64,000 bases of DNA from Bacteroidota bacterium. Lineage in GTDB: Bacteria > Bacteroidota > Bacteroidia > Bacteroidales > FEN-979. The notes beneath the pieces were generated by a model that worked only from the letters and a program-made list of their open reading frames with translations, did no database searches and was not told the DNA's origin. A program made the translations under genes and the position numbers. This document shows, one piece after another, positions 10,242 to 37,355 of the stretch; position 1 is the first letter of the stretch; each line of letters opens with the position of its first letter. The stretch covers positions 8,668-72,667 of the forward strand of contig JBAXLI010000013.1 of NCBI GenBank assembly GCA_037134895.1, read 5' to 3'.

Positions 10242-12605
10242 ATGAAACATTTGTTTATACTTATTTTCATTGCCGGGCTCTTAATGTCCTGCAATCAAAA
10301 TCCGGGGGCCGGATCAACGGACTCCCAAAAGATCACTGAAAACAATCTTGACCGCACTGTTCTCCCGATCAAAGAACCTATCCGGCCCACATATAAAGAA
10401 CTTGATGCCCGGAATGCGACACCACCTCCGCGCTTTCATGTTACTGCCCCGAAAGGCGCTCCAAATGTGGTGATTATCTTAATTGACGATATGGGTTTTG
10501 GTGTATCCGAAGCTTTTGGCGGACCAATCACTACTCCAAACATGGACAAACTGGCAGATAACGGTTTAAAGTATAATTGTTTTCACACCACTTCGCTTTG
10601 CTCGCCTACAAGGGTGGCATTGCTTACCGGGTATAACCATCACAGCAACAATATGGGTTGTATCGGGGAAGCTGCTACAACCTTTCCCGGGAATACTTCG
10701 GTAAGGCCTCAGACCATTACACCAATGGCTGAAGTGCTTCGCCAGAACGGGTATAATACGGCAGCCTTCGGAAAATACCATGAAACCCCGCCCTGGGAAA
10801 TATCGAATTCGGGGCCCCAGGACCGCTGGCCGACACGTTCGGGTTTTGAGAAATTTTATGGTTTCATCGGCGGTGAAACCAACCAGTATTCCCCATTGAT
10901 CTATGACGGGGTGACACTTGTTGAAACGCCTGAAGATCCGAATTATCATTTTACCACCGATATGACCAACCAGGCAATTTCATGGGTCAGGTTCCAGCAG
11001 GCTTTATCGCCTGACAAACCATTCTTCCTGTATTATGCTCCCGGTGCTACACATGCACCTCACCATGTTCCAAAAGCCTGGGCCGAAAAATACAAGGGAA
11101 AGTTTGACCAGGGCTGGGATAAATTGCGTGAAATGACTTTGGAACGCCAGAAAAAACTGGGTATAGTTCCTCAAAACACTAAACTTGCACCAAAACCTCA
11201 AGATATCAAAGATTGGGACAAACTGTCGGCCGATGAAAAGAAATTGTTTGCCCGCCAGATGGAAGTGTATGCAGGCTTTGCCGAACAAACCGATTACGAA
11301 GCAGGGAGACTGATTTCGACTATCAAAGATCTTGGTGTTATGGATAACACCGTAATTATATTCATTGCCGGTGATAACGGGGCAAGCGCTGAAGGACAGA
11401 TGAACGGCCTGTACAATGAAATGACTTATTTCAATGCTGTGCCCGAAACCATTGAGGATATGTTAAAGCATTATGACGAATGGGGCGAACCAAGCACCTA
11501 TCCGCACTTTTCTGCAGGATGGGCTGTAGCCCTTGATGCTCCTTTCTCTTATACCAAGCAGGTCGCATCTGATTTCGGAGGTACCCGTAACGGAATGATC
11601 ATCCAATGGCCCGCCGGCATCAAGGCTAAAGGCGAGGTACGCTCGCAGTTCGCCCATGTCATCGATATTGCTCCTACCGTTTATGAAATTTCGAAAATAC
11701 CTCCTCCAAAAATGGTGAACGGTATTCAGCAGGATCCGATTGAGGGAACAAGCCTGGCATATTCATTCGATGATGCTAAAGCAGCCGGGCAACATAAAGT
11801 ACAGTATTTCGAAATGTTCGGCAACAGGGCTGTTTACCAGGATGGCTGGTTTGCCCGCACAATTCACAGGCCGGCATGGAGCCTGAAAATATCCCATCCG
11901 CTAAAGGAAGATCAGTGGGAACTTTACAATACTACTGATGATTTCAGCCTGGCTAATGATTTATCAGCGCAAAATCCTGACAAACTGAAAGACATGCAGG
12001 CATTGTTCATGAAAGAAGCTGAAAAATATCATGTTCTGCCCCTGGATGACCGCCTCCTCGAAAGAACCAATGCCGAGCTGATGGGCAGGCCGACGGTTAT
12101 GGGTAAAAGAACATCCGTCACATACGGAGAAGGTATGAAAGGGATGGGGACTGATATATTCATTGACCTGAGGAACAAATCCTACACCATTACTGCCGAA
12201 GTAACGGTCGATACCAAAGGAAACGGTGTAATAGTATGCCAGGGCGGCCGCTTTGGCGGCTTGTCATTCTATCTTAAAGACGGTAAACCTGCCTTTACTT
12301 ATAATTACCTGGGGCTGCAGTCGACACGGATAATGTCTTCTGAGGCTCTTAAACCTGGAAATTATCTGCTGGTTTATGACTTTAAATATGATGGCGGCGG
12401 CCCTGGCAAGGGAGGCCTTGGAATACTTACCGTAAATACTAAAAAGGTTGCGGAAGTCCGGATTGAAAAAACCCAGCCTGGTATTTTCTCTGTTGACGAC
12501 CTGGCCGACATCGGAATGGATGAAGGTACCCCTGTTGCCGATTACGGAAAATCCTCGAAGTTCAATGGCAAGATTGCAAGAGTGACCATTGAGCAAAAGA
12601 AATAA
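10242..12605 (+). CDS. Arylsulfatase (type I, Cys-type formylglycine sulfatase), lipoprotein
   Basis: Lipobox LLMSC. Sulfatase signature SLCSPTRVALLTGYNHH (C-x-P-x-R), IILIDDMGFG metal site and GKYH motif. 787 aa. Confidence 0.85.
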   Translation: MKHLFILIFIAGLLMSCNQNPGAGSTDSQKITENNLDRTVLPIKEPIRPTYKELDARNATPPPRFHVTAPKGAPNVVIILIDDMGFGVSEAFGGPITTPNMDKLADNGLKYNCFHTTSLCSPTRVALLTGYNHHSNNMGCIGEAATTFPGNTSVRPQTITPMAEVLRQNGYNTAAFGKYHETPPWEISNSGPQDRWPTRSGFEKFYGFIGGETNQYSPLIYDGVTLVETPEDPNYHFTTDMTNQAISWVRFQQALSPDKPFFLYYAPGATHAPHHVPKAWAEKYKGKFDQGWDKLREMTLERQKKLGIVPQNTKLAPKPQDIKDWDKLSADEKKLFARQMEVYAGFAEQTDYEAGRLISTIKDLGVMDNTVIIFIAGDNGASAEGQMNGLYNEMTYFNAVPETIEDMLKHYDEWGEPSTYPHFSAGWAVALDAPFSYTKQVASDFGGTRNGMIIQWPAGIKAKGEVRSQFAHVIDIAPTVYEISKIPPPKMVNGIQQDPIEGTSLAYSFDDAKAAGQHKVQYFEMFGNRAVYQDGWFARTIHRPAWSLKISHPLKEDQWELYNTTDDFSLANDLSAQNPDKLKDMQALFMKEAEKYHVLPLDDRLLERTNAELMGRPTVMGKRTSVTYGEGMKGMGTDIFIDLRNKSYTITAEVTVDTKGNGVIVCQGGRFGGLSFYLKDGKPAFTYNYLGLQSTRIMSSEALKPGNYLLVYDFKYDGGGPGKGGLGILTVNTKKVAEVRIEKTQPGIFSVDDLADIGMDEGTPVADYGKSSKFNGKIARVTIEQKK

Positions 12606-12951: not shown

Positions 12952-14694
12952 TTAAGTTCCTTTCCGAAGTGTTTTATTTGCGAGTTCGGGATTAATACTT
13001 GAAACAGCTTCAAATTGAGACAGGTGAACTTTGCCTGTAAGCTCATCGAGAAAATGGGAACGCTTTAACAGATCCATCACCGGTCCCTTGACCTCTGAGA
13101 GATGAAAAGTAATTCCTCCGTCTTTGAGCCTGTGATTTATAGCTTCAAGGCTTTCGAGTGCAGAACTGTCGATTGTATTCACTGCCGGACATTCAAGTAT
13201 TATATGGCGGATGGCAGGGTTCGCTGCCACTGAATCGTTAATAAGATCTTCAAGAAAACGGGCATTCGGAAAATACAGGCTTTCGTCTACTCTCAGCGAT
13301 AGTATCTCCGGATCGGTTATCACCGTATGGCGACTAACGTTTCGAAAACTGGTGGTCCCGGGGATCTGACCAACGACTGCAACATGCGGACGGGAGGTTT
13401 TATAAAGGTGGAGTAAAATTGACAGTCCGACTCCCGCAACCAATCCAATTTCAACACCTTCAACCCAGGTCATGAGGATGGTTGCAGCCATTGCTGCAAA
13501 GTCGGTCTTTGAATAAGCAAATGTTTTCTTCAGTGCTTTCAGATCGACCAGTGAAAACACGGCAACGATAATTGTTGAGGCAAGGACTGCTTTAGGAAGA
13601 AAAAAAAGCAAGGGCGTCAGGAACAAGGTGGCAAGAGCTACACCGATCGCAGTATAGGCGCCGGCTGCCGGCGTTTGTGCTCCTGCATCAAAATTAACAA
13701 CTGAACGGGAAAGAGCGCCGGTTACCGGGAAACTTCCTGATATTGATGATCCGACGTCTGAAATTCCGAGAGCGATCATTTCCTGGTTAGGATCGACCCT
13801 TTGCCTGCGCTTGGCAGCGAGAGTCAAAGCAACCGATATAGATTCTACATAACCCACGATGCAAATCAGGAGTGATGGAACAAGAAGTTTGCTCCAGAGC
13901 ACAGGTTCCAAAGGAGGTATTGAAATCTTAGGTAATCCCTTCGGGATAAGCCCAATAATTGCGACACCCTGGCTGGAAAGACCGAAACCCCAAACGGCGA
14001 GTGTTGTAATAAGTATGGCTAATGCCGGTCCCACTTTTGACAGGATATCGGCCAGTTTCTCATTTATTCCTATTCCAAGTAAAAAAGGCTTGAGCCCCTT
14101 TCTCCCCCAGAAAAGGAAGATCAAAGCAGCGAGTCCTATCCCGGCTGTATATGGATTGATCTTAATAAGATTTGGTCCCATCGAGATCAGCAGATCCAAA
14201 AGATTCTCCCCGCTTCCACGGATGCCAAGCAGAGGTGCAAACTGACCAATACCTATCTGCACTGCAGCAGCAGTAATAAAACCTGAAATAACCGGGTGAC
14301 TGAGAAAATTAGCCAGGAAACCCAGGCGCAACACCCCCATCACGATTAGCAAGAGTCCCGTGACCATGCTTAATGCAATCACTGCTCCCAGATATTCAGG
14401 GGTTCCCTGGGTTGCCACAAGCCCTGCAGCAGCCGCTGTCATGAGGCTGGCGACTGCAACAGGACCAACGGCAAGGGCTCGGGATGTACCGAAAATCGCA
14501 TACAGAAGCAAAGGTGCCATTGAAGCATAAAGACCGACTTGTGCCGGCAGCCCAACCAGCATCGCATAAGCCAGGGACTGGGGGATCAGCATGATCGTGA
14601 CGATCACGGCAGCAATCAGATCGCTGACAAGGATCTGCCGGGAATATGAAGCCCCCCAGTCAAAAATCGGAAAATAGCGGCGAAGCAAACGCAT
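12952..14694 (-). CDS. SulP-family inorganic anion (sulfate) transporter with C-terminal STAS domain
   Basis: 580 aa. N-terminal SulP signature region (DLIAAVIVTIMLIPQSLAYAMLVGLP), multiple TM segments and a C-terminal STAS fold (ILSLRVDESLYFPNA...IDSSALESL). Confidence 0.85.
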   Translation of the reverse strand: MRLLRRYFPIFDWGASYSRQILVSDLIAAVIVTIMLIPQSLAYAMLVGLPAQVGLYASMAPLLLYAIFGTSRALAVGPVAVASLMTAAAAGLVATQGTPEYLGAVIALSMVTGLLLIVMGVLRLGFLANFLSHPVISGFITAAAVQIGIGQFAPLLGIRGSGENLLDLLISMGPNLIKINPYTAGIGLAALIFLFWGRKGLKPFLLGIGINEKLADILSKVGPALAILITTLAVWGFGLSSQGVAIIGLIPKGLPKISIPPLEPVLWSKLLVPSLLICIVGYVESISVALTLAAKRRQRVDPNQEMIALGISDVGSSISGSFPVTGALSRSVVNFDAGAQTPAAGAYTAIGVALATLFLTPLLFFLPKAVLASTIIVAVFSLVDLKALKKTFAYSKTDFAAMAATILMTWVEGVEIGLVAGVGLSILLHLYKTSRPHVAVVGQIPGTTSFRNVSRHTVITDPEILSLRVDESLYFPNARFLEDLINDSVAANPAIRHIILECPAVNTIDSSALESLEAINHRLKDGGITFHLSEVKGPVMDLLKRSHFLDELTGKVHLSQFEAVSSINPELANKTLRKGT

Positions 14695-14725: not shown

Positions 14726-16414
14726 TTAATCCTGGCTGCAATGTGAACGTGAAAGCATTCCGCCGGAGATATTCTTTGCTTTGAACCCCTTCTGTAAAAG
14801 GATTCTTGTGGCATAGTAAGCTCTCTGTGCCGAACGGCAGATCACGAGTATTTCACGGTCGCGTGGGAGTTCGCCGATTCGCGAACGGAGCTCTGGCAGC
14901 GGAATGTTTAAGGCTCCGGGAACTGATTCAACAGCCAATTCCTGGGGATTGCGAACATCGAGGAGGAAACCATCGCCCAAATTGTCCCAATGAGTGAGAG
15001 GCATATCACCATTAAGTACATCAACGGCAACCATCCCGGCAAAGTTGACAGGATCTTTTGCGCTTCCGTAAGGTGGTGCATAGCTCAGTTCCGATTCTTC
15101 GAGATCGTAAATTGTACAACCCATCTGAATGGCCATCGCAAATGAATCTATACGTTTGGCAACACCATCCTCCCCAAGCACCTGGGCTCCTAAAAGACGC
15201 CCATTGGATTTCCGGAAGAGTACTTTGATGATGAGCATCTTTGCCCCGGGGTAATATCCGGCATGAGAATTAGGATATAAATATATTTTTTCATAGTCGG
15301 TATCTCCGAGCTGCTTTAGTACTTTTTCGCTTACACCGGTTTGCGAGATCGTTGCATCAAAGATCTGGCAGATTGAAGTCCCCTGGGTCCCGCGATAATG
15401 TGCATTGCGACCGGCAATCACATCAGCGACTATGCGTCCCTGCCGGTTTGCAGGTCCTGCAAGAGGAATAAGCGCCCATTGTCCGGTCACAAAATCCTTT
15501 ACTTCAATAGCATCTCCAACTGCAAAAATATCAGGATCGGAAGTATGCATCTGATCATCCACGCGAATCCCACCCCTTTTACCTATCTCGAGACCGGCAG
15601 ACTTTGCCAGCGCCGTTTCAGGGCGCACACCTATTGCCATGATCACAATATCGGCCGGATGCGCTTTGCCTGATTCTGTTAAAACCTCAAGCGAACCTTT
15701 GGCCGACTTCCTGAATCCGGCAACTCCGTCGTTCAGTTCGACATGAATACCGTGCTTTGTCATATAACGCTCAACCAGTCGCGCCATCTCGCGATCCAGC
15801 GGAGGCATAACCTGGTCGAGCTTCTCTATCAGCGTCACTTCCAGGCCACGGTGGACAAGGTTTTCGGCCATCTCCAGTCCGATGAATCCTCCACCTACCA
15901 CAACTGCACGTTTTGGTTTTGATACCGTATCGATGCCGGAGTATGGGTTCGTGACCTCATTACGGTCTGAATCCCTTTCAAGCCATTCACGTATATGCCT
16001 TGCATCAGGCACAGTCCTCACCGAGAAGATACCCGGAAGATCAATACCGGGCAAGGGAGGACGGATCGGAGCTGCCCCGGGAGAAAGCACGAGTTTGTCA
16101 TATTTTTCTGTACTGACTTCACCTGTAATATGGTTTTTCAACTCTATAGTTTTCTTTTCCGGCGAAATACTGATCGCTTCACAATTCGTTCTGCAGTCTA
16201 TGGCAAACTGGTTCCGAAACAATTGTTCCGTGGCAACCAGGAGAGAAGATTCCTTTTCAATCGAACCGCCAACATGATAAGGCAATCCGCAGTTCGCATA
16301 AGAAACATAGGGTCCGCGTTCCACCATCAGGATTTCGGCCTTTTCATCCAGCCTCCGCAGCCGTGCAGCACAGGAGGCGCCACCTGCTACTCCGCCAACA
16401 ATAATTACTTTCAT
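14726..16414 (-). CDS. CoA-disulfide/persulfide reductase-like flavoprotein fused to a C-terminal rhodanese domain
   Basis: GxGxxG (IIVGGVAGGASCA), redox Cys motif SYANCGLPYHVGG, a second dinucleotide fold (VVVGGGFIGLE), and a C-terminal rhodanese loop ILVICRSAQRAYY. Confidence 0.8.
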   Translation of the reverse strand: MKVIIVGGVAGGASCAARLRRLDEKAEILMVERGPYVSYANCGLPYHVGGSIEKESSLLVATEQLFRNQFAIDCRTNCEAISISPEKKTIELKNHITGEVSTEKYDKLVLSPGAAPIRPPLPGIDLPGIFSVRTVPDARHIREWLERDSDRNEVTNPYSGIDTVSKPKRAVVVGGGFIGLEMAENLVHRGLEVTLIEKLDQVMPPLDREMARLVERYMTKHGIHVELNDGVAGFRKSAKGSLEVLTESGKAHPADIVIMAIGVRPETALAKSAGLEIGKRGGIRVDDQMHTSDPDIFAVGDAIEVKDFVTGQWALIPLAGPANRQGRIVADVIAGRNAHYRGTQGTSICQIFDATISQTGVSEKVLKQLGDTDYEKIYLYPNSHAGYYPGAKMLIIKVLFRKSNGRLLGAQVLGEDGVAKRIDSFAMAIQMGCTIYDLEESELSYAPPYGSAKDPVNFAGMVAVDVLNGDMPLTHWDNLGDGFLLDVRNPQELAVESVPGALNIPLPELRSRIGELPRDREILVICRSAQRAYYATRILLQKGFKAKNISGGMLSRSHCSQD

Positions 16415-16463: not shown

Positions 16464-16493
16464 GGAAGCTAAACCGCTAAGGGTTCAGCTTCC
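16464..16493 (-). terminator. Stem-loop with U-tract downstream of the 155-aa gene (minus strand)
   Basis: GGAAGCT..AACC pairs with GGTT..AGCTTCC. On the minus strand the hairpin is followed by TTTTCT. It sits between the 155-aa gene and the reductase gene. Confidence 0.5.
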
Positions 16494-16512: not shown

Positions 16513-16980
16513 TTATTGTTTTTTCTCCAGAAATGGAATATTCTGGAGCAGTCGGGCACGAATTGCCGTTAAAATGTAATTTTCGATCTGGTAGAATTGG
16601 GTTGCAACCAAACCGTCTGATATTGCTTTTACCTTCGTATAACAAGTTACAATCAGTGCATCAGTTTTTTTCTGGAGGTCAATCACCTTCATTGTCCAGG
16701 CATCAGCCTGTGCCGCAGTCATTGTCTGGTATTGGCTGGCATACTGCTTTAACAGTTCGATCCTCTGTTTCCCCAGGTTTTTCCGTTGTGTTTCATATTG
16801 GTCATACAACTTCCAGAAAGCATCTTTTTGCGTGGCTGAAGGTTTTACAAAATCGGCTACAACTGCCTTTTTATCCATCCCGAATGCGGCCTGCATCAGG
16901 TCAATCTCTTCCTTATCCGATTGAGTATACGCAAACGATGAAAGGAATAATGCTGCAATAATAAAAATGTACTTTTTCAT
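16513..16980 (-). CDS. Periplasmic helical hypothetical protein
   Basis: Signal peptide (SSFAYTQ) and predicted all-helical composition. Two xTxxQ motifs faintly recall CpxP/Spy-type proteins; I make no firm family call. Confidence 0.45.
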   Translation of the reverse strand: MKKYIFIIAALFLSSFAYTQSDKEEIDLMQAAFGMDKKAVVADFVKPSATQKDAFWKLYDQYETQRKNLGKQRIELLKQYASQYQTMTAAQADAWTMKVIDLQKKTDALIVTCYTKVKAISDGLVATQFYQIENYILTAIRARLLQNIPFLEKKQ

Positions 16981-17090: not shown

Positions 17091-18053
17091 CTATCCTGCT
17101 GATCCGTCAGTCCGTCCAAAAGCCTCGTCAATCATAACCTGAAAGCGCTGAACAACTTCATTCGAAGGTGTTTTGTAATCGTCAAGTTCGTAAACTACAC
17201 CGAGCGATTCATACTTGCCAAGTCCAAAACGGTGATAGGGCAGCAGTTCATAATCAATCACATTCTTGTGCGGCTTGATAAATTCCAGTACACCCAGGAT
17301 ATGTTCATCATCGGCATTCACACCGGGAATCAAAGGCGTACGGGCAATAAAATCGATGTGAGGAAACGTTTCGTAGGCTTTTTTAAAATTGGCCAGAATA
17401 CGCTCGTTACCTACGCCTGTCCATTTTTTATGCCTTTCGGAATCCATCAATTTCAGGTCGTGAAGCATGGTATCAACATGTGGAAGTACTTTCTCGAGGA
17501 AGGACCAGGGAGCGTTACACGCTGTTTCGACGGCTGTATTGATTCCCCGGCTATGGGCTTCCTGCAGCAAAGCTGCTGCGAAGTCGGGTTGCAGCATAAC
17601 TTCACCTCCGCTTATCGTCATGCCGCCTCCGGTATTGCGATAGAAGGAAGCATCTTTTTCTACTTCTTCCATTACTTCGCCAACCGTCATTGTTTTGCCA
17701 AACATTTCGAGGGCGCCGGTGGGGCAAAGTGAGGTGATTTCTTCCGTAATGCCTTTGGCCAGCTGCCAGTTGACTTTTACCTTTGAATCGTCTCCCTCCA
17801 CAAAATAAAAAGCGCCTTCAGGAAATGGAGACTTAAGGCATATGCTGCATTCTTTTCCTTTGCACTTTTTGGGATCATAAGAAACCTCAGGCTTCATCCC
17901 TATGCTTTCAGGATTGCCGCACCATTTGCAACGCAGGGAACAACCTTTTATGAACACATTTGTGCGGATACCGGGGCCGTCGTGGCTGCAATACCGCTGG
18001 ATATTTAGTACACGGCCTGTTATATCCAATCTGTTATTTGTCTGATTTGTCAT
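17091..18053 (-). CDS. Glycyl-radical enzyme activating protein (radical SAM activase with ferredoxin-like insert)
   Basis: N-terminal GRE-activase fingerprint CSHDGPGIRTNVFIKGCSLRCKWCGNPES (CxxxCxxC). Extra Cys-rich region (KCKGKECSIC ... LCPTGAL). ATG 18053 is preceded by GGAGGG with a 7-nt spacer. The track starts earlier, at 18089. Confidence 0.9.
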   Translation of the reverse strand: MTNQTNNRLDITGRVLNIQRYCSHDGPGIRTNVFIKGCSLRCKWCGNPESIGMKPEVSYDPKKCKGKECSICLKSPFPEGAFYFVEGDDSKVKVNWQLAKGITEEITSLCPTGALEMFGKTMTVGEVMEEVEKDASFYRNTGGGMTISGGEVMLQPDFAAALLQEAHSRGINTAVETACNAPWSFLEKVLPHVDTMLHDLKLMDSERHKKWTGVGNERILANFKKAYETFPHIDFIARTPLIPGVNADDEHILGVLEFIKPHKNVIDYELLPYHRFGLGKYESLGVVYELDDYKTPSNEVVQRFQVMIDEAFGRTDGSAG

Positions 18054-18066
18054 GATTCTTCCCTCC

Positions 18067-19224
18067 TTATTTTCCAAGGTAAATACCAAGTGAATCCGCT
18101 ACCTGGAAAAACATGCTTTCAGAGGGTATCGTTCTTACTTTGTTGATGGCCTCGGCAAGTGGAACGAACTTAATATCCGGAGGAACAAACGCCACCATTA
18201 CCCCGTTTTTACCGGCTTCGAGCGCCTGAATGGCTCCTGCGCCGTAAGCCACACCCAACTGGCGATCGACTGCCGATGGTGCGCCACCCCTGACCCAGGG
18301 GCCGATTACCATTGGAAAAGTTTCTTCGGCTATCCTCAGTTGCAAGCCATCGGCAACTGCCTGTGCTGCCTGGCCTGACTTATGAATAACGAATTCACTA
18401 TTGGAATCACTGGATGCCAAAGGCGATAAAGAAGCTTTGAGAGAGGATACTTTTTCTTCTTGTTTCTTCTGATTCAAAATTTTTGCACCTTGAGCCACTA
18501 CTACCAGGCCCCAGGATTTTTTACCAAGCATTTTATTTTTAAGATGTGTTGCCACATTTTTCAAATCCACCGGAATTTCAGGAATCAGCACTGCATCGGC
18601 AGCAACGGCAATACCGGCCTGTAAGGCAATCCATCCGGCTTCCTCTCCCTGCACTTCGACCACTGCAATTTTATGGGCGGCCTTTGCTGCCAAACGCGCA
18701 CGGTCGAGCATGTCGATAGTAAAAGTAAGCGCCGTGTTGAACCCGAATGACACCGAAGTGGATGCAATTTCATTTTCGATAGAGCGTGGTACGCACACCG
18801 CATTCAATCCTTTTTTGTGAAGCTGGTAAAGAATACTCAGTCCTCTTCCGCCAACTATCGAAATTACAGCATCAATATTTTCTGCTTTTAATTTTACCAG
18901 CAATTCATCCGACATGTCAACTTCCTCCACCATTTCAAGTTCATTGATGGTGCGGACATTGAACGGATCTATCCTGGAAGACTGGCCGAGAACACTGCTT
19001 GTGTTCGGATCCATATTCAATACCCGCGGATCGATTGGAATTAATCCGCCATTGGGGTATTTTTCGGGATGAAGCAAGCCTTCAAATCCATCGCGGATGC
19101 CGACAAGTTCCCATCCCAATTTTCCGGCAGCAAGAGAGGCTCCTGCAACAACGGCATTTATCCCGGGAATGTAGCCGGCGCCTACCATAATGGCAATGCG
19201 TTTTTGTCCTGTATCTGTACTCAT
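18067..19224 (-). CDS. Phosphofructokinase-fold (PfkA family) protein with substituted catalytic residues
   Basis: Colinear with PfkA, but GGDAPGMN is GAGYIPGIN, GGDGS is GGRGL, GTIDND is RSIENE, MGR is QGE and GHxQRGG is GPWVRGG. The comparison is made from memory of E. coli PfkA. Confidence 0.7.
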   Translation of the reverse strand: MSTDTGQKRIAIMVGAGYIPGINAVVAGASLAAGKLGWELVGIRDGFEGLLHPEKYPNGGLIPIDPRVLNMDPNTSSVLGQSSRIDPFNVRTINELEMVEEVDMSDELLVKLKAENIDAVISIVGGRGLSILYQLHKKGLNAVCVPRSIENEIASTSVSFGFNTALTFTIDMLDRARLAAKAAHKIAVVEVQGEEAGWIALQAGIAVAADAVLIPEIPVDLKNVATHLKNKMLGKKSWGLVVVAQGAKILNQKKQEEKVSSLKASLSPLASSDSNSEFVIHKSGQAAQAVADGLQLRIAEETFPMVIGPWVRGGAPSAVDRQLGVAYGAGAIQALEAGKNGVMVAFVPPDIKFVPLAEAINKVRTIPSESMFFQVADSLGIYLGK

Positions 19225-19260
19225 AATTATTTATGATTGATTACTTCTCGTTCTTATGAA

Positions 19261-19293
19261 AAGTAAGGCATGACATATGGTCATGCCTTACTT
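19261..19293 (-). other. Intercistronic perfect 14-bp stem-loop between the GRE and PFK-like genes
   Basis: AAGTAAGGCATGAC, loop ATATG, then GTCATGCCTTACTT. Only a weak U-tract (TTTCAT) follows on the minus strand. Confidence 0.6.
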
Positions 19294-19311
19294 GTAAATC
19301 CTGGTTTTATT

Positions 19312-21729
19312 CTATTCACAACGCTGCAGGGTACGATCGATGATCTCGTTTTGTACACCTACGTGCAGTTTGGTGAAGAATGCGCTGAAACCGGCAACCC
19401 TGACCACGAGATCGCGGTATTTTTCGGGGTGTTTCTGTGCATCCCTGAGGATTTCGGTGTTCAGTACATTGAACTGGATATGGTATCCACCGTTATCAAA
19501 CAGCGTCTTGACCAGACGCAGCACATTATCCCGGCCTTTGCGGGTATCGAGCTGATCCGGTGGAAGCTTCATGTTCATGTGCGTTGCACAATATGCAACT
19601 GCATCAATTCCTTTTGCTCCAGACATTACCAATGCAGTCGGTCCGTTGACATCGGTGCCCGGCATGGCCGAGATACTTCCGTCGGTGAGCGCCACACCGG
19701 CCTTCTTGCCGTTCGGCAGCGCCCCGGTCACCATACCAAATGGGTTGTGGGCACTCTTGGTATAGGCATCGAGCGAGGTCTTGATGTCCTTGCTGATGTG
19801 GTTACCACCGCCATCCACATTGTTAAATGCATGCAAGATGGTGTTGTAAATCCGGCGGACAAACTTGTTTACTTCAGGGATGTCGTTGCCATGCTTGGGT
19901 GCTTCAAAACACATCTTCCCTATTTTAGCATATTCTCCCTCGAAGTTGGCAGCCAGGGCTTTTTTTAGTTCGGCCATAGTCACCTTCTTGTCGTCGTACA
20001 CCAGTTTCTTCACTGCCATCAGCGAGTTGGCCGCATCCACGCCTCCGATGGAGATCTGGGCAACCGTGTAGTAGTTGGCCCCGCCCTCCCAGACCTCTTT
20101 ACCGGTCTCGAGGCATCCGCCGGTCAGGACGGAGCGCCAGGCGCAAGGGAGGAAATCTGCCTGAAGGATGCTTGCAATCCAGGCTGAACGACGAAGCGTG
20201 TCCTCGCAGGCTTGAAGTTGCTTCTCGAATGCGGTATATAGTTCTTCGAAGCTTTTGAAGCTCTCAGGATCCCCGCTCTTGGGTCCTATCTGCTTCTTGG
20301 TGCGGGGATCGAAGCCGTTGTTCATCGTCAACTCGATGATCTTGCCGAGGTTGGGTTGGCCCTCCACCGGGTGACCAGTCTCATAAGGGATGTAGCTTCC
20401 CACACAGGCTCCGACGCAAGTACGTCGGGCTTTCTCTAACGGGAGATAACCATTCCTTTCGGTCCAGCCCCAAAGGTTCAGGGCCCGCTTCAACATCACT
20501 TCGGCATTCACGAACTGAGGCATGCCCATACCAGTACCTATAACATCGAGTACTTTTTCCAGGAATTTGCCGCTCATCTGCTCTGTATAGGCACACGAAA
20601 GCGGAGGTTGCGGCAGAGCGAGATAGGCTGCTGAATCCAGAATCACGTAGTCCATTTCGGCAGTGGCATCTTCACCATTCCCGGTATAACCGCCGAGGGT
20701 GATGCTCTGTCCCAGATCGGCGGAGTTCTGCTTAGCGATTCTCTCGCCATAGTAGTAGCCGATTTCATTCAGCTTGATGGAGAGATTCTGGAACATGTAG
20801 ACAGCATCGTCATAAGTAACAAGCCCGGCGGCCTTGTCGGCCTGATAGAATGGCTCCAGATTCTGTCCCAGGAAGGCTTCAGAGTACCCGCAGCCGATCT
20901 GCTCGAGTTCTGCCACGAGGTGACTGAAGAAGTGACTTTGGATTGCCTCCCTCAGATTCCGGGCAGGATGCTCGGGAACCCATTCGCAGGTTTCTGCAAT
21001 CGCGATCAACTCGGCTTTCCGGGCTTCATTTTTCTCTTTAGCAGCCATCTCCCTTGCCAACCCGGCATAACGATGGGCAAACCGGATCGCTGCTCTCATC
21101 ACGATGAGGGTTCCCTCATAGAAGTAGAACTTGGACATGTTTGGCATACGCATCTCGAGAGCCATCTGCCGTTCCTCTACCTCCTTGATTATGCTGGCAA
21201 GCCCCTCCCGGTAAACCCGCGGGTAGTTAAGATTGCCACCGCCGGCCGGCCAGTCAGAGAACGATCCAAAAAGGCCGGCGTCGGTAGATAGCTTTGGGTC
21301 GTATCCATATCGCTTCTGAAAAATCTCGTCGACCCGGGGTTTCATCGCACGTTTGCCCCAGTAGTCGAGCGCCCACTGGTTGGCCTTCTTATCTTCCGGA
21401 GTCGGCGACTTTTCTACCGTATTCTCTTCTATCATCCAATCCACCTGCCATTCGGGATAGGGGTACATGGCATTGGTCTTGCCGGCCATGGCGCCGACAA
21501 AGAGGTTGTCGTCGATATACAGTTTCTTACGATCCAGAACGGCTGCCAGGAATTTGGCACGTCGGAGTACCTGGTTATCTCCAGTGGTTTCCCCATAGAC
21601 ATCATGCATGATCCTAACCCGCTCGAAGTCGAGTTCAGGCTCCGTGCTCCTGAGTTGTTCTTTCAGCCGGTCGATACGCTTCGTATCGGTGTTGACCTTT
21701 GCTGTGAAAATGTTGCTTTCATTTGTCAT
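19312..21729 (-). CDS. Glycyl radical enzyme (PFL-fold), unassigned subfamily
   Basis: 805 aa from ATG 21729, with AGGAG 8 nt upstream. C-terminal fingerprint VVRVAGFSAFFTK. Candidate thiyl Cys in RRTCVGACVGSYIPYE. N-terminal IDRLKEQL...RAKFLAAVL...LYIDDNLFVG is typical of non-PFL GREs. The track ORF begins 32 codons earlier (21825). Confidence 0.9.
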   Translation of the reverse strand: MTNESNIFTAKVNTDTKRIDRLKEQLRSTEPELDFERVRIMHDVYGETTGDNQVLRRAKFLAAVLDRKKLYIDDNLFVGAMAGKTNAMYPYPEWQVDWMIEENTVEKSPTPEDKKANQWALDYWGKRAMKPRVDEIFQKRYGYDPKLSTDAGLFGSFSDWPAGGGNLNYPRVYREGLASIIKEVEERQMALEMRMPNMSKFYFYEGTLIVMRAAIRFAHRYAGLAREMAAKEKNEARKAELIAIAETCEWVPEHPARNLREAIQSHFFSHLVAELEQIGCGYSEAFLGQNLEPFYQADKAAGLVTYDDAVYMFQNLSIKLNEIGYYYGERIAKQNSADLGQSITLGGYTGNGEDATAEMDYVILDSAAYLALPQPPLSCAYTEQMSGKFLEKVLDVIGTGMGMPQFVNAEVMLKRALNLWGWTERNGYLPLEKARRTCVGACVGSYIPYETGHPVEGQPNLGKIIELTMNNGFDPRTKKQIGPKSGDPESFKSFEELYTAFEKQLQACEDTLRRSAWIASILQADFLPCAWRSVLTGGCLETGKEVWEGGANYYTVAQISIGGVDAANSLMAVKKLVYDDKKVTMAELKKALAANFEGEYAKIGKMCFEAPKHGNDIPEVNKFVRRIYNTILHAFNNVDGGGNHISKDIKTSLDAYTKSAHNPFGMVTGALPNGKKAGVALTDGSISAMPGTDVNGPTALVMSGAKGIDAVAYCATHMNMKLPPDQLDTRKGRDNVLRLVKTLFDNGGYHIQFNVLNTEILRDAQKHPEKYRDLVVRVAGFSAFFTKLHVGVQNEIIDRTLQRCE

Positions 21730-21805
21730 TTTGTTTTCTCCTTTGAATGTTTTTCTTATTTTTTTAAGGATTCTATTGCTTTTTAACTGCTTACTTTGGA
21801 TTTCA

Positions 21806-22345
21806 TCATCTGAGCAATTCTTCAAAATGGATGGCTGTTTGAGCCTGTTTCTCCAGAAGAGTATTTAATTCATTGGCCGTTCTGATCCGCCTTGCAACAA
21901 CCTCGGTCAACCCTTTACGGAAACTCTGGATGGTGTATTTGAAATTATTTTGATCGAAAATTTCGCACTTTACTATATGATCGGTTGGATTATCGCTTTC
22001 CTGTTTACATTCGTGACATGCCCCGTAAAGAGTTGTTATTTCATCTTTAACCGTCTGTGAAGTCCACGTGATCTCTCCATAACCTCCGAATTCATTGTGC
22101 CATAACTGGACCCACCTGCGGAGATCACAGCGCCAGCCTGAAATGGCTACCTGTATAGTATCGTCGATAACTCCTTCCCCCACAGGGACAATCAATCCAG
22201 GTTCGGTTCCCAGGGATGAAAATGTTCCCTGTGTTTTCGGCCAGTTGAAAACAACCTCACGCTGAAATTCCCCGTTTTTGGTAAGTTTGGCAATCCAGCT
22301 TCCCCCAAAAAAGTCACGAAATAATTTTGCCGTTAATTCAGCCAT
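21806..22345 (-). CDS. Hypothetical 179-aa protein with four Cys, first gene of the GRE operon
   Basis: Best start is MAELTAKLF at 22345; the track ORF extends to 22486 across the promoter region. Cys are at residues 73, 110, 113 and 127 (GACHEC). I recognise no family. Confidence 0.5.
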   Translation of the reverse strand: MAELTAKLFRDFFGGSWIAKLTKNGEFQREVVFNWPKTQGTFSSLGTEPGLIVPVGEGVIDDTIQVAISGWRCDLRRWVQLWHNEFGGYGEITWTSQTVKDEITTLYGACHECKQESDNPTDHIVKCEIFDQNNFKYTIQSFRKGLTEVVARRIRTANELNTLLEKQAQTAIHFEELLR

Positions 22346-22452: not shown

Positions 22453-22460
22453 TACATTTG
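22453..22460 (+). promoter_or_regulatory. Candidate -7 box (TACATTTG) for the LuxR-family regulator gene
   Basis: Matches the Bacteroidota TAnnTTTG consensus. It lies 37 nt upstream of ATG 22497 and only 5 nt from the S7 palindrome. Confidence 0.4.
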
Positions 22461-22496
22461 CAAGAAGTCAAAAGTAGAATAGGCAAATTTCATCTT

Positions 22497-23255
22497 ATGC
22501 ATAATACTCCCTATAGTTACAGCATATTTTTTGATTTTATTGAATCCTACCTGCCATCGGGGTTCCTTGATATTCATGCTGACGATCCTATCATGCTGAA
22601 GCTCGGGAATCTCATGGAAGAGAATGACCAGTTCTTCACTGTTTCAGATCTGGGGCAGATTAAATTCCTGTTTGCCAGTGAACGGATCCGGCAAATGATC
22701 GGGGTAGAGCCAAAAGAGCTTAATCCAGGGCATTTTGTGGAAGTCACCCACCCGGATGATCTGAGCCGGATGGGTTTGTTAAGGGCACAGACATTCATTG
22801 TGGAAAAGGAGGTATTGCAATCAAACAAGGGGAGTGCATTGGTGTCATTCACAATCAGGTTGCGCAATCCGGCCGGAATTTATTCTAATCATCTATGCCA
22901 GGCCTATTTTTTTTATTCTCCGGTTCCACGCCAGGTAGTTTATCTGATCCAGGTTATCAGCAATGTTGGCTGGTTCAAAATGAAAAAACAGGACTATCAC
23001 TATTATAAAGGAAAGGACTTATCCTATTTTAAATATCCTGATGAGGAATTGTTGAAGATGGGACCTCCTTTTTCCCAACGCGAGCTGGAAATCATCAAAT
23101 TGATTGAGGCGGGCCTTAGCAGTAAACAAATCGGGGAAAAATTATTCCTGAGCATGCACACCGTGAATACACATCGTTCCAATATTTTGGAGAAGTCAGG
23201 TAAATCACAAATTTCGGATCTGATTTACCACCTTAAGGAACAGGGACTGCTTTAA
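22497..23255 (+). CDS. LuxR/GerE-family transcriptional regulator with N-terminal PAS-like sensor domain
   Basis: C-terminal HTH: FSQRELEIIKLIEAGLSSKQIGEKLFLSMHTVNTHRSNILEKSG. The N-terminal ~170 aa have a PAS-like pattern (HPDDL...). The track starts at TTG 22458, inside the -7 box; ATG 22497 is preferred. Confidence 0.8.
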   Translation: MHNTPYSYSIFFDFIESYLPSGFLDIHADDPIMLKLGNLMEENDQFFTVSDLGQIKFLFASERIRQMIGVEPKELNPGHFVEVTHPDDLSRMGLLRAQTFIVEKEVLQSNKGSALVSFTIRLRNPAGIYSNHLCQAYFFYSPVPRQVVYLIQVISNVGWFKMKKQDYHYYKGKDLSYFKYPDEELLKMGPPFSQRELEIIKLIEAGLSSKQIGEKLFLSMHTVNTHRSNILEKSGKSQISDLIYHLKEQGLL

Positions 23256-23276: not shown

Positions 23277-24338
23277 TCAGGCTTGCTTCACTTCATTATT
23301 CGAATTAATCCATCCGACAAATAATCTGTATCCAAGCGACATCACAATTGCTCCTGTAAAGAGCCCGATAAATCCGGAGAATATGAATCCGCCGATCACA
23401 CCGATGAAAATTACCACCATGGGAACCGGAGCGCCTTTGCCAAGCATTATAGGAGTAAGTACGTTGTCTGAAAGGGCAACCAGCACCAGGGCAATAGTCC
23501 ATAATATGGCCGGCAGAATGGCTTTCACTGCGAAAAAATAAATAATGATGGGTACCGTGACAATGAATACAGGTAGTTGAAGGACTGCAAAAATAAATGC
23601 GATCAATGCCCATATCCCGGCATAGGGAACCCCTGCCAGAAAGAACACTATTCCATTTAACAAGCCCATCACGAGAGACTCTCCAAGGATCCCTTTTACA
23701 ACGCTTGATACTGTCTTCAGGGTCAAATCAGCAAATTCATCCCCCCTGTCACCTCCAACTTTCCTGAAAAATTTACGAATATTCTCACCTGTGCCACCAA
23801 TCGCCAGCAGAATCCCTGCAATGAAAAGCGAAACCATGATCTGGATTATGCTGCTAAAAGCGCTTAGGAGACCTTGTGCCATTTTTTTACCGAATTCCAG
23901 AAGCTGGTCCTGGTATTTTAGCACGATTGGTTTGATGTCGGTGTCTACATCCTTCCAGAAAGCATAAAATTTTTCCCCGATGACCGGCCATTCTTTTACC
24001 TTTTCTGGTGGGGGAGGAATGCTCAGAGTACCGCTATCATAGCTTACTTTGAGTGCTTTCACTTCATCAAAAAGAGAATCTACCAGTAACCAGGTGGGAA
24101 GGATAATAATGACAAGGATAGAAAAAACAATAATGAAAGAGGCCAGTTTAGGCTTTTCTCCCATCTTCTTTGAAAGACTGCTGTGGAGCGGATAAAGCGC
24201 AAGGGCGAGTACCATACTCCACAGCATGATACTTACAAACGGATACATAATCGCCAGGCACCAGGCAATGATGAGCAAAAGGATGAAAAGCCTGATTGTG
24301 GTGTCGTAAACGGAATTATTTGAAGATTGATTATTCAT
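23277..24338 (-). CDS. AI-2E family transporter (PerM/UPF0118 permease)
   Basis: 353 aa with about 8 TM segments. The characteristic layout has a soluble insertion between TM clusters, and the N-terminal LFILLLIIAW...PLHS region is typical of the family. Confidence 0.7.
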   Translation of the reverse strand: MNNQSSNNSVYDTTIRLFILLLIIAWCLAIMYPFVSIMLWSMVLALALYPLHSSLSKKMGEKPKLASFIIVFSILVIIILPTWLLVDSLFDEVKALKVSYDSGTLSIPPPPEKVKEWPVIGEKFYAFWKDVDTDIKPIVLKYQDQLLEFGKKMAQGLLSAFSSIIQIMVSLFIAGILLAIGGTGENIRKFFRKVGGDRGDEFADLTLKTVSSVVKGILGESLVMGLLNGIVFFLAGVPYAGIWALIAFIFAVLQLPVFIVTVPIIIYFFAVKAILPAILWTIALVLVALSDNVLTPIMLGKGAPVPMVVIFIGVIGGFIFSGFIGLFTGAIVMSLGYRLFVGWINSNNEVKQA

Positions 24339-24444: not shown

Positions 24445-25665
24445 CTATCCAATCCGCATTCCAGATGCCAAAGGATCTGCTGCCTGTGGAAGTTTCGATG
24501 TAGTCCTCTTCTTCCATTCATCTTCCAGCAGTTCCCTGGCAGCCTGTTCCAGGAATTCGGGTGCGGACCATTTTCGCACATCGAAATTGTTCTTAATGTA
24601 ACCGTGACTCAGCATGAAGTCCTTCCCTATCTCAACTGAAACCAGGTTCTGCGATGACAGGTTCGGCACCATATCGACAAGCCTGATCCCTTCATAGGTA
24701 TCTTCAACATCACGATAGAAGGTCTGTTTGTCCAGGATGGCTGCTGCAGCATGTTTGTGCTCATTGGCCCAGCGCCCGACTTTGATCATGCCTTTCAGGA
24801 AGGCAACAGCTAATTCAGGGTGCTTTTCTGCCATAACATCGCTGCAGGTGATGGCAGCAGGGATATTGGCCACCTGCAAGGTCCAGTCAGGATACCTCGA
24901 GAGGTCTTCAATGGATTTAAATTTTCCTGTTGTTTCGGAGAGTATACTAAGCACCTTGCTCTGGCTGTACATGGCATCGATTACTCCTTTTTCAAGAGCT
25001 GTTTCCAATGGGCGGAATGCCAGGTCATGTTTATGATCGCGGCGAAGCCATAATTCTGACGGATTTTCCATTTCAGGGCCCATCATTTCAGGTATGTCAT
25101 ACCAATCATCCGGATAAGGGAATTCAACGATCTGAACATCATTCCTTGTCATACCATTTACTCTCAGCATCAGCTCGATTCCCTGCTCTTCCTGGATGCC
25201 CCACCAGTCGGTCTTTATTTTATTCTGGCTCCTGGATAAACCTATCTTTTTACCTTTCAGGTCAGCCATGCGGTATATATCGTCCCTTGAGCGTACGATC
25301 ATCACTCCGCCTTCTTTTGGCACATGTGTCACTCCTAAAAGCCTGGTTCTGCGAATATCTGCCTGTACGTGAATCGGAGGGAACAAGCCGCCAAAGCGGA
25401 TAATATTATCCATATTATGTATGTAGTGAGGATACCAGTCGTTTTCTTTGCGAGCCCGCAGATAAAGGTACTTCACATCCATCTTCTTATATATTTCCTT
25501 GGTCCAGCCCAGTTCCTGGTCTACATTGCTTGCTGAAACCAGCGGACAATTAGTGTAATAAACCTCATTCCAATCCAGCGGCACTGTTTTGAGTTTGCCT
25601 GCCTTTTTCGCATTGGCAATAATTTCTTCCATGGTCGGAGCCGTTCTTGTTGTTTCGTTTGCCAT
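24445..25665 (-). CDS. Cytoplasmic NMT1/SsuA-fold protein resembling DszB (2'-hydroxybiphenyl-2-sulfinate desulfinase)
   Basis: No signal peptide. Blocks match my recollection of Rhodococcus DszB: YTNCP vs YSNCP (catalytic Cys), HYIHNMDNIIRFGG vs HFTYDQPAYTRFGG (His...Arg with the same spacing), RTRLLGVT vs RTRLLGIT, ADLKGKKIGLS vs ADLAGRRIGVS, and WSAPEFL vs WAAPEFL. Confidence 0.6.
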   Translation of the reverse strand: MANETTRTAPTMEEIIANAKKAGKLKTVPLDWNEVYYTNCPLVSASNVDQELGWTKEIYKKMDVKYLYLRARKENDWYPHYIHNMDNIIRFGGLFPPIHVQADIRRTRLLGVTHVPKEGGVMIVRSRDDIYRMADLKGKKIGLSRSQNKIKTDWWGIQEEQGIELMLRVNGMTRNDVQIVEFPYPDDWYDIPEMMGPEMENPSELWLRRDHKHDLAFRPLETALEKGVIDAMYSQSKVLSILSETTGKFKSIEDLSRYPDWTLQVANIPAAITCSDVMAEKHPELAVAFLKGMIKVGRWANEHKHAAAAILDKQTFYRDVEDTYEGIRLVDMVPNLSSQNLVSVEIGKDFMLSHGYIKNNFDVRKWSAPEFLEQAARELLEDEWKKRTTSKLPQAADPLASGMRIG

Positions 25666-31868: not shown

Positions 31869-31920
31869 TCTCTTGGGGATAATGTTAAAATCTTCTTTTG
31901 AAATACCTTAAAAAAAACTG

Positions 31921-32976: not shown

Positions 32977-33006
32977 GACGCTTAACGTTTGTATTGATAA
33001 AGATTC

Positions 33007-34482: not shown

Positions 34483-34516
34483 GATGTTTTCTACGGTTTC
34501 TGACCGTATCTCCCTG

Positions 34517-37249: not shown

Positions 37250-37355
37250 AGTTCTTACGGTTTTCCCTGACAAATACATAAGACAAATAGAAGAGAATGT
37301 AAAAACATCCTCTTCTATCTGCAAGGTTTAAAAAACAATGTGTATAATTGAATAT

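Follow-up and report, generated by a model that had tools for sequence, protein, structure and literature searches.

A glycyl-radical enzyme family with a predicted base-free, two-cysteine active site and a phosphofructokinase-fold partner gene

The operon analyzed here encodes a glycyl-radical enzyme (GRE) and a protein of the phosphofructokinase (PFK) fold, and lies in a 64,000-nucleotide (nt) stretch of DNA, hereafter the window, from a Bacteroidota bacterium (FEN-979; assembly GCA_037134895.1, contig JBAXLI010000013.1, positions 8,668 to 72,667 of the forward strand). Its four co-directional genes on the minus strand code for a 179-amino-acid (aa) protein, the 805-aa GRE, a 385-aa PFK-fold protein and a 320-aa activase. 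An initial annotation of this DNA had placed the open reading frames (ORFs) at 21806-22345, 19312-21729, 18067-19224 and 17091-18053, and all four are present there. The features of the GRE and of the two genes downstream of it are:

19312..21729, minus strand: catalytic subunit of the GRE, 805 aa, with the Pfam domains PFL-like and Gly_radical
19390..19392, minus strand: codon of the radical-site Gly780 (RVAGFSAFF), inside the Gly_radical match and invariant in 121 sequences
20395..20412, minus strand: Cys loop G440-A-C442-V-G444-S445, aligned to HypD and glycerol dehydratase, family-invariant
20890..20892, minus strand: codon of Cys280 in G-C-G-Y-S, by prediction a further active-site Cys, aligned with HypD Asp278 and glycerol dehydratase His281
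18067..19224, minus strand: PFK-fold protein, 385 aa, degenerate, obligatory partner gene; full-length match to PF00365 (1.6e-58)
17091..18053, minus strand: radical S-adenosylmethionine (SAM) GRE-activating enzyme, 320 aa; TIGR02494, 317 bits against a cut-off of 174

Of 8,000 candidates scored in a homologue search of 5.8 billion proteins, 398 were GRE relatives at E<=1e-50, indicating that the family is abundant in environmental metagenomes; the family alignment comprises 121 sequences. A genome scan yielded 29 loci in metagenome-assembled genomes (MAGs), distributed over Bacteroidales, Balneolaceae, Chloroflexia, Alpha-, Beta-, Gamma- and Deltaproteobacteria, Acidobacteriota and Nitrospiraceae and covering at least seven phyla, and contig look-ups added four. 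One of the four, locus L001, lies on the contig of L009 and was excluded, so neighborhood counts are given over 32 loci.

The GRE carries a PFL-like domain (PF02901, 1.5e-140) and a Gly_radical domain (PF01228, 1.2e-27), which together with the TIGR02494 match of the activase bear out the view of the initial annotation that this is a GRE operon with a dedicated activase. Both VVRVAGFSAFF and RRTCVGACVGSYIPYE were found in the protein, and the codons of Gly780 (19390-19392) and Cys442 (20404-20406) are 338 residues apart, in agreement with the earlier hand count. The closest solved structures in HMMER searches were HypD (6vxc, 2e-113) and glycerol dehydratase (5.5e-108), the X-succinate synthases ranking far lower (MasD, 3e-81; TutD/BssA, 4pkc, 3e-74). 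The GRE missed every NCBIfam equivalog cut-off, with 446 bits against 1100 for HypD, 424 against 1100 for IAD, 416 against 1000 for HpsG and 379 against 1050 for CutC. With the subfamily model TIGR01774 it scored 464 bits against a cut-off of 678, and with the PFL model TIGR01255 78 bits against 994, the latter match covering only the C-terminal part. Identity by BLAST was 32% to a HypD-like representative and 30% to the HpsG equivalog, so that identity to characterized GREs, about 30-32%, lies far below 50%. Within the family, the best 120 relatives found in the protein search are 75-92% identical to the window GRE, and identities in the alignment of 121 sequences are 74-91%. As many as 245 of the 805 positions are invariant across the alignment, including the motifs W160-P-x-G-G-G165-N, G279-C280-G-Y-S, A-R-R436 and R-V-A-G780-F-S-A-F-F and the residues Q458, D654, Y656, K658 and H661. 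Judged by its domains and motifs, the GRE is an intact member of the PFL-like GRE superfamily with a cognate activase, and radical formation is predicted. The family is uncharacterized, widely spread and very strongly conserved.

The activase, which is encoded in 28 related loci, has HpsH, the activase of HpsG, as its nearest equivalog model (343 bits against a cut-off of 430). Its CX3CX2C motif is formed by C38, C42 and C45, and C22 is conserved too. A ferredoxin-like Cys-rich insert had been described in this protein; the insert is there, about 65 residues long and rich in Cys, although it holds one conserved four-Cys site (C64, C69, C72 and C110) and not the pair of ferredoxin-type motifs that many non-PFL activases have. 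One related locus (L034) also has a 170-aa ORF at 15766-16278 with no Pfam match, which was at first a candidate conserved unknown protein and proved to be a truncated activase paralogue, 58-83% identical to the activases of other loci.

In the HMMER alignment 'GACVGS' of the GRE sits on 'SGCVET' of HypD and 'IGCVEP' of glycerol dehydratase, Cys442 pairing with HypD Cys434 and glycerol dehydratase Cys433. On the basis of this alignment Cys442 is assigned as the thiyl Cys, and Gly444 stands where other enzymes have the catalytic Glu. All 121 family sequences share the loop G-A-C-V-G-S-Y-x-P-Y-E-T-G-H-P. The earlier proposal of a Cys loop without Glu therefore holds, the Cys+2 residue being Gly444 throughout, and the A-C-V-G found in all 121 sequences matches neither the CC of PFL nor the CxE of eliminases and isomerases. 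The protein has no canonical GCxE or CCV loop elsewhere, its only GCxE string (538-541) lying on a non-catalytic segment. This literal, family-invariant G538-C539-L-E541 (window 20107-20118) is easily mistaken for a GCxE Cys loop; it was rejected as a hidden one since its counterparts in the alignment, 'DDCIEKG' in HypD and 'DNCIGKG' in glycerol dehydratase, are non-catalytic.

Further residues around the site are replaced. HypD His160, the His/Asp position of eliminases, corresponds to Gly165 in the alignment, and HypD Tyr450 to Gln458. Cys280 falls in the column of HypD Asp278 and glycerol dehydratase His281, residues that contact substrate, and is thus predicted to lie in the active site. 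G165, C280, C442, G444 and G780 are all invariant across the family. Two other Cys did not hold as essential residues: a CxxxC redox pair C438/C442 was rejected because 8 of the 121 sequences have Ala438, and a C-terminal Cys804 shuttle because Cys804 occurs in only 41 of them.

The active-site columns were surveyed by scanning 1.84 billion cluster representatives and aligning 134 full-length proteins of the best 150 hits. At Cys+2, 67 of the 134 have Glu and 67 another residue, indicating that a Glu-less loop alone is common among uncharacterized GREs. Consequently, of the earlier claim that the loop is unusual, the absence of Glu stands and its rarity does not: the loop is not unique to the window GRE, and many orphan GRE clades exist. 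On the other hand, Cys at column 280 was confined among these representatives to the window family and its five nearest clades, which are 50, 45, 41, 40 and 40% identical to the window GRE and all lack the Glu. The Arg/Gln/Arg of IslA and HpsG, to which sulfonate-binding roles are ascribed (PMC13450708), align with W160, G164 and D654 of the GRE (alignment to the HpsG equivalog), and the strand at the sulfonate-binding Arg reads D654-A-Y656-T-K658. As predicted from these residues, the active site cannot work like those of the eliminases, isomerases, PFL or known C-S lyases. What distinguishes the GRE is a base-free two-cysteine site, whose Cys280 went unnoticed in the initial annotation, together with an obligatory PFK-fold partner.

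The order GRE, PFK-like gene, activase was found in 29 of the 29 loci that have DNA downstream of the GRE. In the 50%-identical sister clade the activase gene lies directly 3' of the GRE and the PFK-like gene is absent; the PFK partnership is therefore specific to the family. The PFK-fold protein was aligned with solved PFKs and with 22 orthologues and paralogues. It keeps GxGxxPGxN, SI(E/D)N(D/E) and RGG. In all 22, GGDGS is changed to GG(R/K/Q/H/L/E)GL, so Asp103 is gone; the variable residue left in its place indicates that position 103 is unconstrained. Asp12 is replaced by Tyr or Phe (SGGDAPG to G(A/S/G)G(Y/F)xPG), Gly124 by Arg, and Arg171 and His249 vary. We take Asp103 to be the Mg-binding residue, and the Asp12 region, Arg171 and His249 to be the residues of phosphoryl transfer or fructose 6-phosphate binding, as in the PFKs of E. 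coli and Bacillus. Scores were below the cut-offs of all NCBIfam PFK models (235 against 431 bits for TIGR02483; 213 against 253 for NF002872). The protein is thus very probably not a phosphofructokinase, and probably no kinase, as the Asp103 of GGDGS is lost; with the key phosphoryl-transfer residues missing, a role as sugar-phosphate kinase is unlikely.

The gap between the PFK-like and activase genes is 6-30 nt and that between the PFK-like gene and the GRE 76-420 nt. When identity to the window copy was compared over 13 loci, PFK-like and activase identities were correlated (Spearman 0.93), whereas PFK-like and GRE identities were not (-0.09), and GRE identity correlated with neither of the other two. 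These results suggest that the PFK-fold partner functionally belongs with the activase. In L002, L013, L015, L017, L018, L023 and L025 another PFK-fold paralogue is encoded about 1-3 kb past the activase; it shares 55-59% identity with the first and likewise lacks Asp103. It is usually followed by a 380-aa iron-sulfur (Fe-S) protein (CHCCGCCC plus two ferredoxin motifs), to which MetK is added in about half of these loci; none of the three is present in the window.

In the public record P0271, which is identical to the PFK-fold protein, the name given is 'MAG: 6-phosphofructokinase [Bacteroidota bacterium]', and relatives of the GRE are named 'formate C-acetyltransferase' or 'trans-4-hydroxy-L-proline dehydratase'. 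The residues found here argue against '6-phosphofructokinase', 'formate C-acetyltransferase' and 'hydroxyproline dehydratase' as names for these proteins, and metabolic reconstructions that rely on such doubtful names may be misled.

Upstream of the GRE lie the fourth gene of the operon and a divergent regulator:

21806..22345, minus strand: 179-aa protein, predicted beta-barrel, lineage-specific, with no Pfam or NCBIfam match
22458..23255, plus strand: regulator with PAS and GerE (LuxR-type) domains, divergent from the operon (Pfam GerE 1e-14, PAS_3)

The 179-aa protein has 294 homologues, all unnamed. Its four Cys are at positions 73, 110, 113 and 127, as had been noted, of which only C113 and C127 are conserved in homologues, where they are near-invariant, while C73 and C110 vary. 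An AlphaFold2 (AF2) model with a predicted local distance difference test score (pLDDT) of 71 shows about nine antiparallel strands between an N-terminal and a C-terminal helix; its best structural matches were OssO/OlmO barrels, the anti-sigma factor RsfG, designed ligand-binding barrels and lipocalins. The gene occurs in 8 of the 32 loci, only those of Bacteroidales type, and always with divergently transcribed PAS-LuxR genes, so of the two neighbors whose conservation was in question the PFK-fold gene is a constant companion of the GRE and the 179-aa gene is not. Each Bacteroidales-type locus has two to four PAS-LuxR paralogues, each adjoining a 179-aa copy or the GRE, and in L003 and L017 a second 179-aa copy lies beside another LuxR gene, distant from the GRE. 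The 179-aa protein is therefore no Fe-S subunit and is best read as part of a lineage-specific PAS-LuxR sensing and regulatory module.

The sequences around the GRE were also scanned for RNA elements and for shell genes. By Rfam, no riboswitch or other RNA was found in the window or upstream of the GRE in six loci, and RNA therefore offers no clue to the ligand. A scan for sigma-70 promoters gave 22 sites against 19.7 expected from shuffled sequence; the consensus is not of the Bacteroidota promoter type and the scan was disregarded. A tblastn search with PduA (E<=10) found no microcompartment shell gene, in agreement with the initial annotation, a weak negative as the query sequence was approximate.

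The remaining genes on either side of the operon are:

16513..16980, minus strand: 155-aa secreted protein encoded at the end of the transcription unit, with a signal-peptide-like N-terminus and a weak LTXXQ match
16464..16493, minus strand: strong terminator-like hairpin (12 pairs and a T-run) 3' of the 155-aa gene, separating the GRE unit from the next two genes
14726..16414, minus strand: coenzyme A (CoA)-disulfide/persulfide reductase-rhodanese fusion (CoADR-RHD), 562 aa (Pfam Pyr_redox_2 and Rhodanese)
12952..14694, minus strand: SulP anion transporter with STAS domain, 580 aa (Sulfate_transp 1.4e-96; TIGR00815, 408 bits against a cut-off of 380)
23277..24338, minus strand: membrane transporter of the AI-2E/PerM family, 353 aa (PF01594 2.2e-31)
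24445..25665, minus strand: DszB-like protein, 406 aa, cytoplasmic, candidate sulfinate desulfinase (DszB 2de2, 3.5e-11, residues 35-375)

Several of these genes have a relation to sulfur. The CoADR-RHD protein holds the redox Cys42 (SYANCGLPY) and the rhodanese Cys526 (CRSAQR) and matched, over its full length, BaCoADR-RHD (3icr, 4.5e-168), Npsr (3nta, 2.8e-158) and the CoA-persulfide reductase 8a56 (5.7e-144); with the CoADR model TIGR03385 it scored 474 bits, under the cut-off of 579. DszB is the only significant solved relative of the 406-aa protein, and the residues of the DszB active site, Cys27, His60, Arg70 and Gly73 (PMC12168087), correspond to C40, H80, R90 and G93, which are conserved wherever the homologous sequence covers them. 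The protein is accordingly a candidate sulfinate desulfinase by its residues. It was also considered as a periplasmic binding protein of the SsuA/NMT1 type, which was rejected for want of a signal peptide and in view of the DszB match with its catalytic residues.

Within 10 kb of the GRE, CoADR-RHD was found in 16 of the 32 loci, a DszB-like gene in 15, SulP in 13, the 380-aa Fe-S protein in 11, SBF carriers in 10, and MetK and small ferredoxins in 8 each. An AI-2E-family gene lies near the GRE also in L007 and L036; the 155-aa protein is not conserved, having a clear homologue in L018 only and a weak match (23.5%) in L020. Since only about half of the loci carry DszB-like or CoADR-RHD genes, the sulfur work-up genes are accessory. 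Locus L036 (14619-20528) encodes, past its activase, a ferredoxin, an FNR-like reductase, CoADR-RHD and a single-domain rhodanese, and then two SBF carriers and a PNP/MTAN-family protein; these genes look like a compact set for activase support and sulfur handling. The ferredoxin/FNR, MetK and MTAN neighbors are accounted for by the needs of a radical-SAM activase, namely reductant, SAM and removal of 5'-deoxyadenosine. A SAM- or methylthioadenosine-derived substrate, suggested by the MetK and PNP/MTAN-like neighbors, was rejected because their co-occurrence with ferredoxin and FNR is more simply explained as support of the activase. A link to arsenic through SBF/ACR3 and rhodanese was rejected as well, since ars genes are absent and the SBF proteins are short and BASS-like. 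Taken together, the GRE cassette looks self-sufficient and horizontally mobile.

Elsewhere in the window, a 787-aa sulfatase-family protein (10242-12605, plus strand), found in none of the related loci, is encoded directly beyond the SulP gene, and a second SulP/STAS carrier (40984-42708, minus strand) is 31% identical to the operon-adjacent one. A 642-aa B12-binding radical-SAM protein with DUF4070 (5039-6967, plus strand) has no obvious link to the operon. A carbohydrate cluster (29939-37279, minus strand) comprises a MIP channel, a 7-bladed lactonase, a Zn-dependent glucose-dehydrogenase-like protein, an alpha-amylase-family protein and a GH63/MGH1-like hydrolase.

The sister clades that share Cys280 were examined in their own gene contexts. 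In the 45-47%-identical clade two 790-aa Glu-less Cys280-type GREs are encoded in tandem (L032, 1827-12132, and L033, with the same arrangement), accompanied by an SsuABC-type (SsuA-family) ABC transporter, two activases and an HpsG equivalog that scored 1370 bits against the 1000-bit cut-off; L032 and L033 look like an unexplained three-GRE sulfonate locus. A 41%-identical Cys280-type GRE and its activase (L037, 1078-5861) adjoin a gene of the TauE (sulfite-exporter) family, a sigma-54 activator and an amino-acid permease. Two other clades are found with an aldehyde dehydrogenase and a CoA-transferase, or with a component of 2-hydroxyacyl-CoA dehydratase. By these neighbors, three of the six Cys280 clades stand in a sulfonate or sulfite context. 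The organosulfur substrate suggested earlier, sulfinates included, fits this gene context: the DszB-like neighbor, the sister clade beside HpsG and a sulfonate transporter, and TauE.

We tentatively favor, at somewhat less than an even chance, a reading in which the substrate is a small organosulfur anion, the reaction a base-independent radical C-S cleavage, and the sulfinate, sulfite or sulfane-sulfur products pass to the DszB-like enzyme and the persulfide reductase. The activase would install the glycyl radical on the GRE, and cleavage of the C-S bond would need no acid/base assistance, proceeding by beta-scission and/or with Cys280 serving as a second radical or hydrogen relay. The co-transferred DszB-like desulfinase could work up the sulfur leaving group, converting sulfinate to sulfite, and the CoA-persulfide reductase-rhodanese could reduce sulfane sulfur to H2S. 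The PFK-fold protein may act as a non-catalytic partner, a ligand-binding or scaffolding subunit tied more closely to the activase than to the GRE, and the 179-aa barrel protein would be part of the PAS-LuxR sensing module in the Bacteroidales version.

Several points weigh against this reading. About half of the loci lack a DszB-like gene and about half lack CoADR-RHD; most loci of Chloroflexia hold only a distant SulP (30-34% identical). The SulP protein has sub-threshold hits to the DauA and BicA models, and bicarbonate and C4-dicarboxylates are further substrates of SulP carriers. The known sulfonate clamp is absent, so a sulfonate substrate, if any, would be bound differently. The active-site position of Cys280 comes from sequence alignment, as the AF2 model of the GRE (from a 23-sequence alignment) had a pLDDT of 58.5, with the Cys and Gly loops below 50, and was not used. 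The co-variation statistic comes from 13 related loci, a small and phylogenetically non-independent sample. Finally, we know of no GRE reaction that yields a sulfinate.

A more far-reaching proposal combines three parts: a two-cysteine, base-free GRE that performs a new type of reaction, a PFK-fold pseudoenzyme as a new kind of obligatory accessory subunit of the GRE or activase, and a self-contained anaerobic sulfur-acquisition cassette passed by horizontal transfer between bacteria of many phyla in soil and sediment. As a whole we consider this combination possible but rather doubtful. As its new reaction one may consider radical epimerization, a reductive turnover or the homolytic scission of C-S bonds in non-hydroxylated organosulfur anions.

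The GRE could be a radical epimerase or isomerase in which Cys442 takes a hydrogen from one face and Cys280 returns one to the other face or to a neighboring carbon. Elimination would be blocked by the missing Glu, and a chiral hydroxy- or amino-sulfonate, or else a sugar-like anion, would serve as substrate; the sister clade beside HpsG could then convert the wrong enantiomer of 2,3-dihydroxypropane-1-sulfonate. The two invariant Cys at substrate-contacting positions, the loss of both acid/base residues and the tandem sister GREs beside HpsG and a sulfonate transporter all agree with such a role, and GRE isomerases are now a recognized class (PMC13450708). However, the known GRE isomerases all retain CxE (PMC13450708), no downstream catabolic enzyme for an epimerized product is conserved in the 32 loci, and the relative geometry of Cys442 and Cys280 is not given by the poor GRE model (pLDDT 58.5). 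We regard an epimerase as unlikely.

Two cysteines at the active site are also a property of PFL, and the GRE might be a C-C lyase of that kind with a split Cys pair. The radical would pass from Cys442 to Cys280, which would add to a 2-oxo acid, such as sulfopyruvate or another anionic keto acid, and the acyl-enzyme would be resolved by CoA; the CoA-disulfide reductase would keep CoA reduced. The conserved CoADR-type neighbor and the sub-threshold similarity of SulP to the C4-dicarboxylate carrier DauA are in line with this. It is nevertheless improbable: there is no adjacent CC pair, the PFL model gives 78 against 994 bits and covers the C-terminal part only, and genes for phosphotransacetylase, acyl-CoA or formate handling do not recur in the 32 loci. 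The rhodanese domain on the reductase, moreover, fits the reduction of a persulfide rather than of a CoA disulfide.

The probability is likewise low that the GRE is reductive, like the thioredoxin-type class III ribonucleotide reductase (RNR). Turnover would then leave a Cys280-Cys442 disulfide or a Cys280 persulfide, which CoADR-RHD and Fe-S proteins would re-reduce with NAD(P)H. The second Cys at the active site and the presence, in many loci, of the NAD(P)H disulfide/persulfide reductase-rhodanese, an extra rhodanese, the 380-aa Fe-S protein and ferredoxins are consistent with it. On the other hand, the reductase is missing from about half of the loci, including most of those of Chloroflexia, no C-terminal Cys shuttle is conserved (Cys804 in 41 of 121 sequences), and the ferredoxins could just as well donate electrons to the activase. 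Reductive turnover is not known for any PFL-like GRE (PMC13450708).

A model that extends the initial annotation, a multi-subunit GRE in which the 179-aa protein would be an Fe-S small subunit of the HPAD-gamma or BSS-beta/gamma kind and the product of the PFK-fold gene a sugar or sulfosugar kinase, is very improbable, for although the genes adjoin in the window and a PfkA-family sulfofructose kinase, SqiK, exists in sulfoglycolysis (PMC9594981), the 179-aa protein conserves two of four Cys, is modeled as a beta-barrel and is absent from 24 of the 32 loci, tracking LuxR copies, all PFK-fold orthologues have a variable residue for Asp103 and have lost further catalytic residues, and no sulfoglycolysis isomerase or aldolase was found nearby.

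GREs are the main anaerobic route for breaking inert C-H, C-C, C-N, C-O and C-S bonds, and an obligatory pseudo-kinase partner is present in no known GRE. If the sulfur context of the base-independent C-S cleavage is true, the cassette would be a new anaerobic route for mobilizing organic sulfur in soils and sediments and would give a DszB-like desulfinase its first role outside the Dsz pathway. The breadth of the family, its extreme conservation, the second Cys and the pseudo-kinase make it a good experimental target.

A June 2026 review recognizes seven GRE classes and whole clades without experimental assignment (PMC13450708). In the literature searched, no GRE was described with a PFK-like, DszB-like or CoADR-rhodanese partner. 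The window system is certainly a GRE system, but its active-site make-up and its partner are undescribed in that literature. Among the proteins encoded beside it, the 406-aa protein aligns with DszB over about 340 residues, the four active-site residues match and both proteins are cytoplasmic; in contrast to the 4S pathway, in which DszB is the 2'-hydroxybiphenyl-2-sulfinate desulfinase, the window locus has no DszA or DszC, identity is low and the setting is anaerobic. The PFK-fold protein shares the PF00365 fold and the retained motifs with the PFKs of the PfkA family, SqiK included, and differs from them by the replacements at Asp103, Asp12 and Gly124.

Accessory subunits of GREs are known for HPAD, BSS and MASS only, and are small metal-binding proteins, Fe-S or rubredoxin-like, of less than 100 aa (PMC13450708). 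The multi-subunit GREs (HPAD gamma, BSS beta/gamma, MASS delta) resemble the window GRE in being encoded with an obligatory extra protein, whose counterpart in the window would be a 385-aa PFK-fold protein without a Cys cluster, its gene being coupled to the activase; genes for BSS-type beta/gamma Fe-S subunits do not recur among the 32 GRE loci. PFL (C418/C419) and class III RNR (NrdD) use a second active-site Cys beside the thiyl Cys. In PFL, however, the two Cys are adjacent on one loop, whereas in the window GRE the predicted second one is on another strand, 162 residues off. The C-S lyases IslA/IseG and HpsG are similar in their organosulfur gene context, in that the window activase is closest to HpsH and in the sister clades with HpsG, the SsuA-type transporter and TauE; the CxE Glu and the Arg/Gln/Arg clamp of these lyases are absent from the window GRE, which is 30% identical to the HpsG equivalog.

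The 1,2-eliminases and isomerases (HypD, glycerol/propanediol dehydratase, CutC, HpyG/HpzG, HplG, YbiW/PflD) share with the window GRE the fold, the pair of domains, the positions of the Gly and Cys loops and the activase subfamily, at about 32% identity and with equivalog scores of 340-446 bits against cut-offs of 1000-1150. All GRE eliminases and isomerases retain CxE (PMC13450708), where the window GRE has Gly444, together with Gly165 in place of HypD His160 and Cys280 in place of HypD Asp278; they have no PFK-fold partner, and the window GRE system has one.

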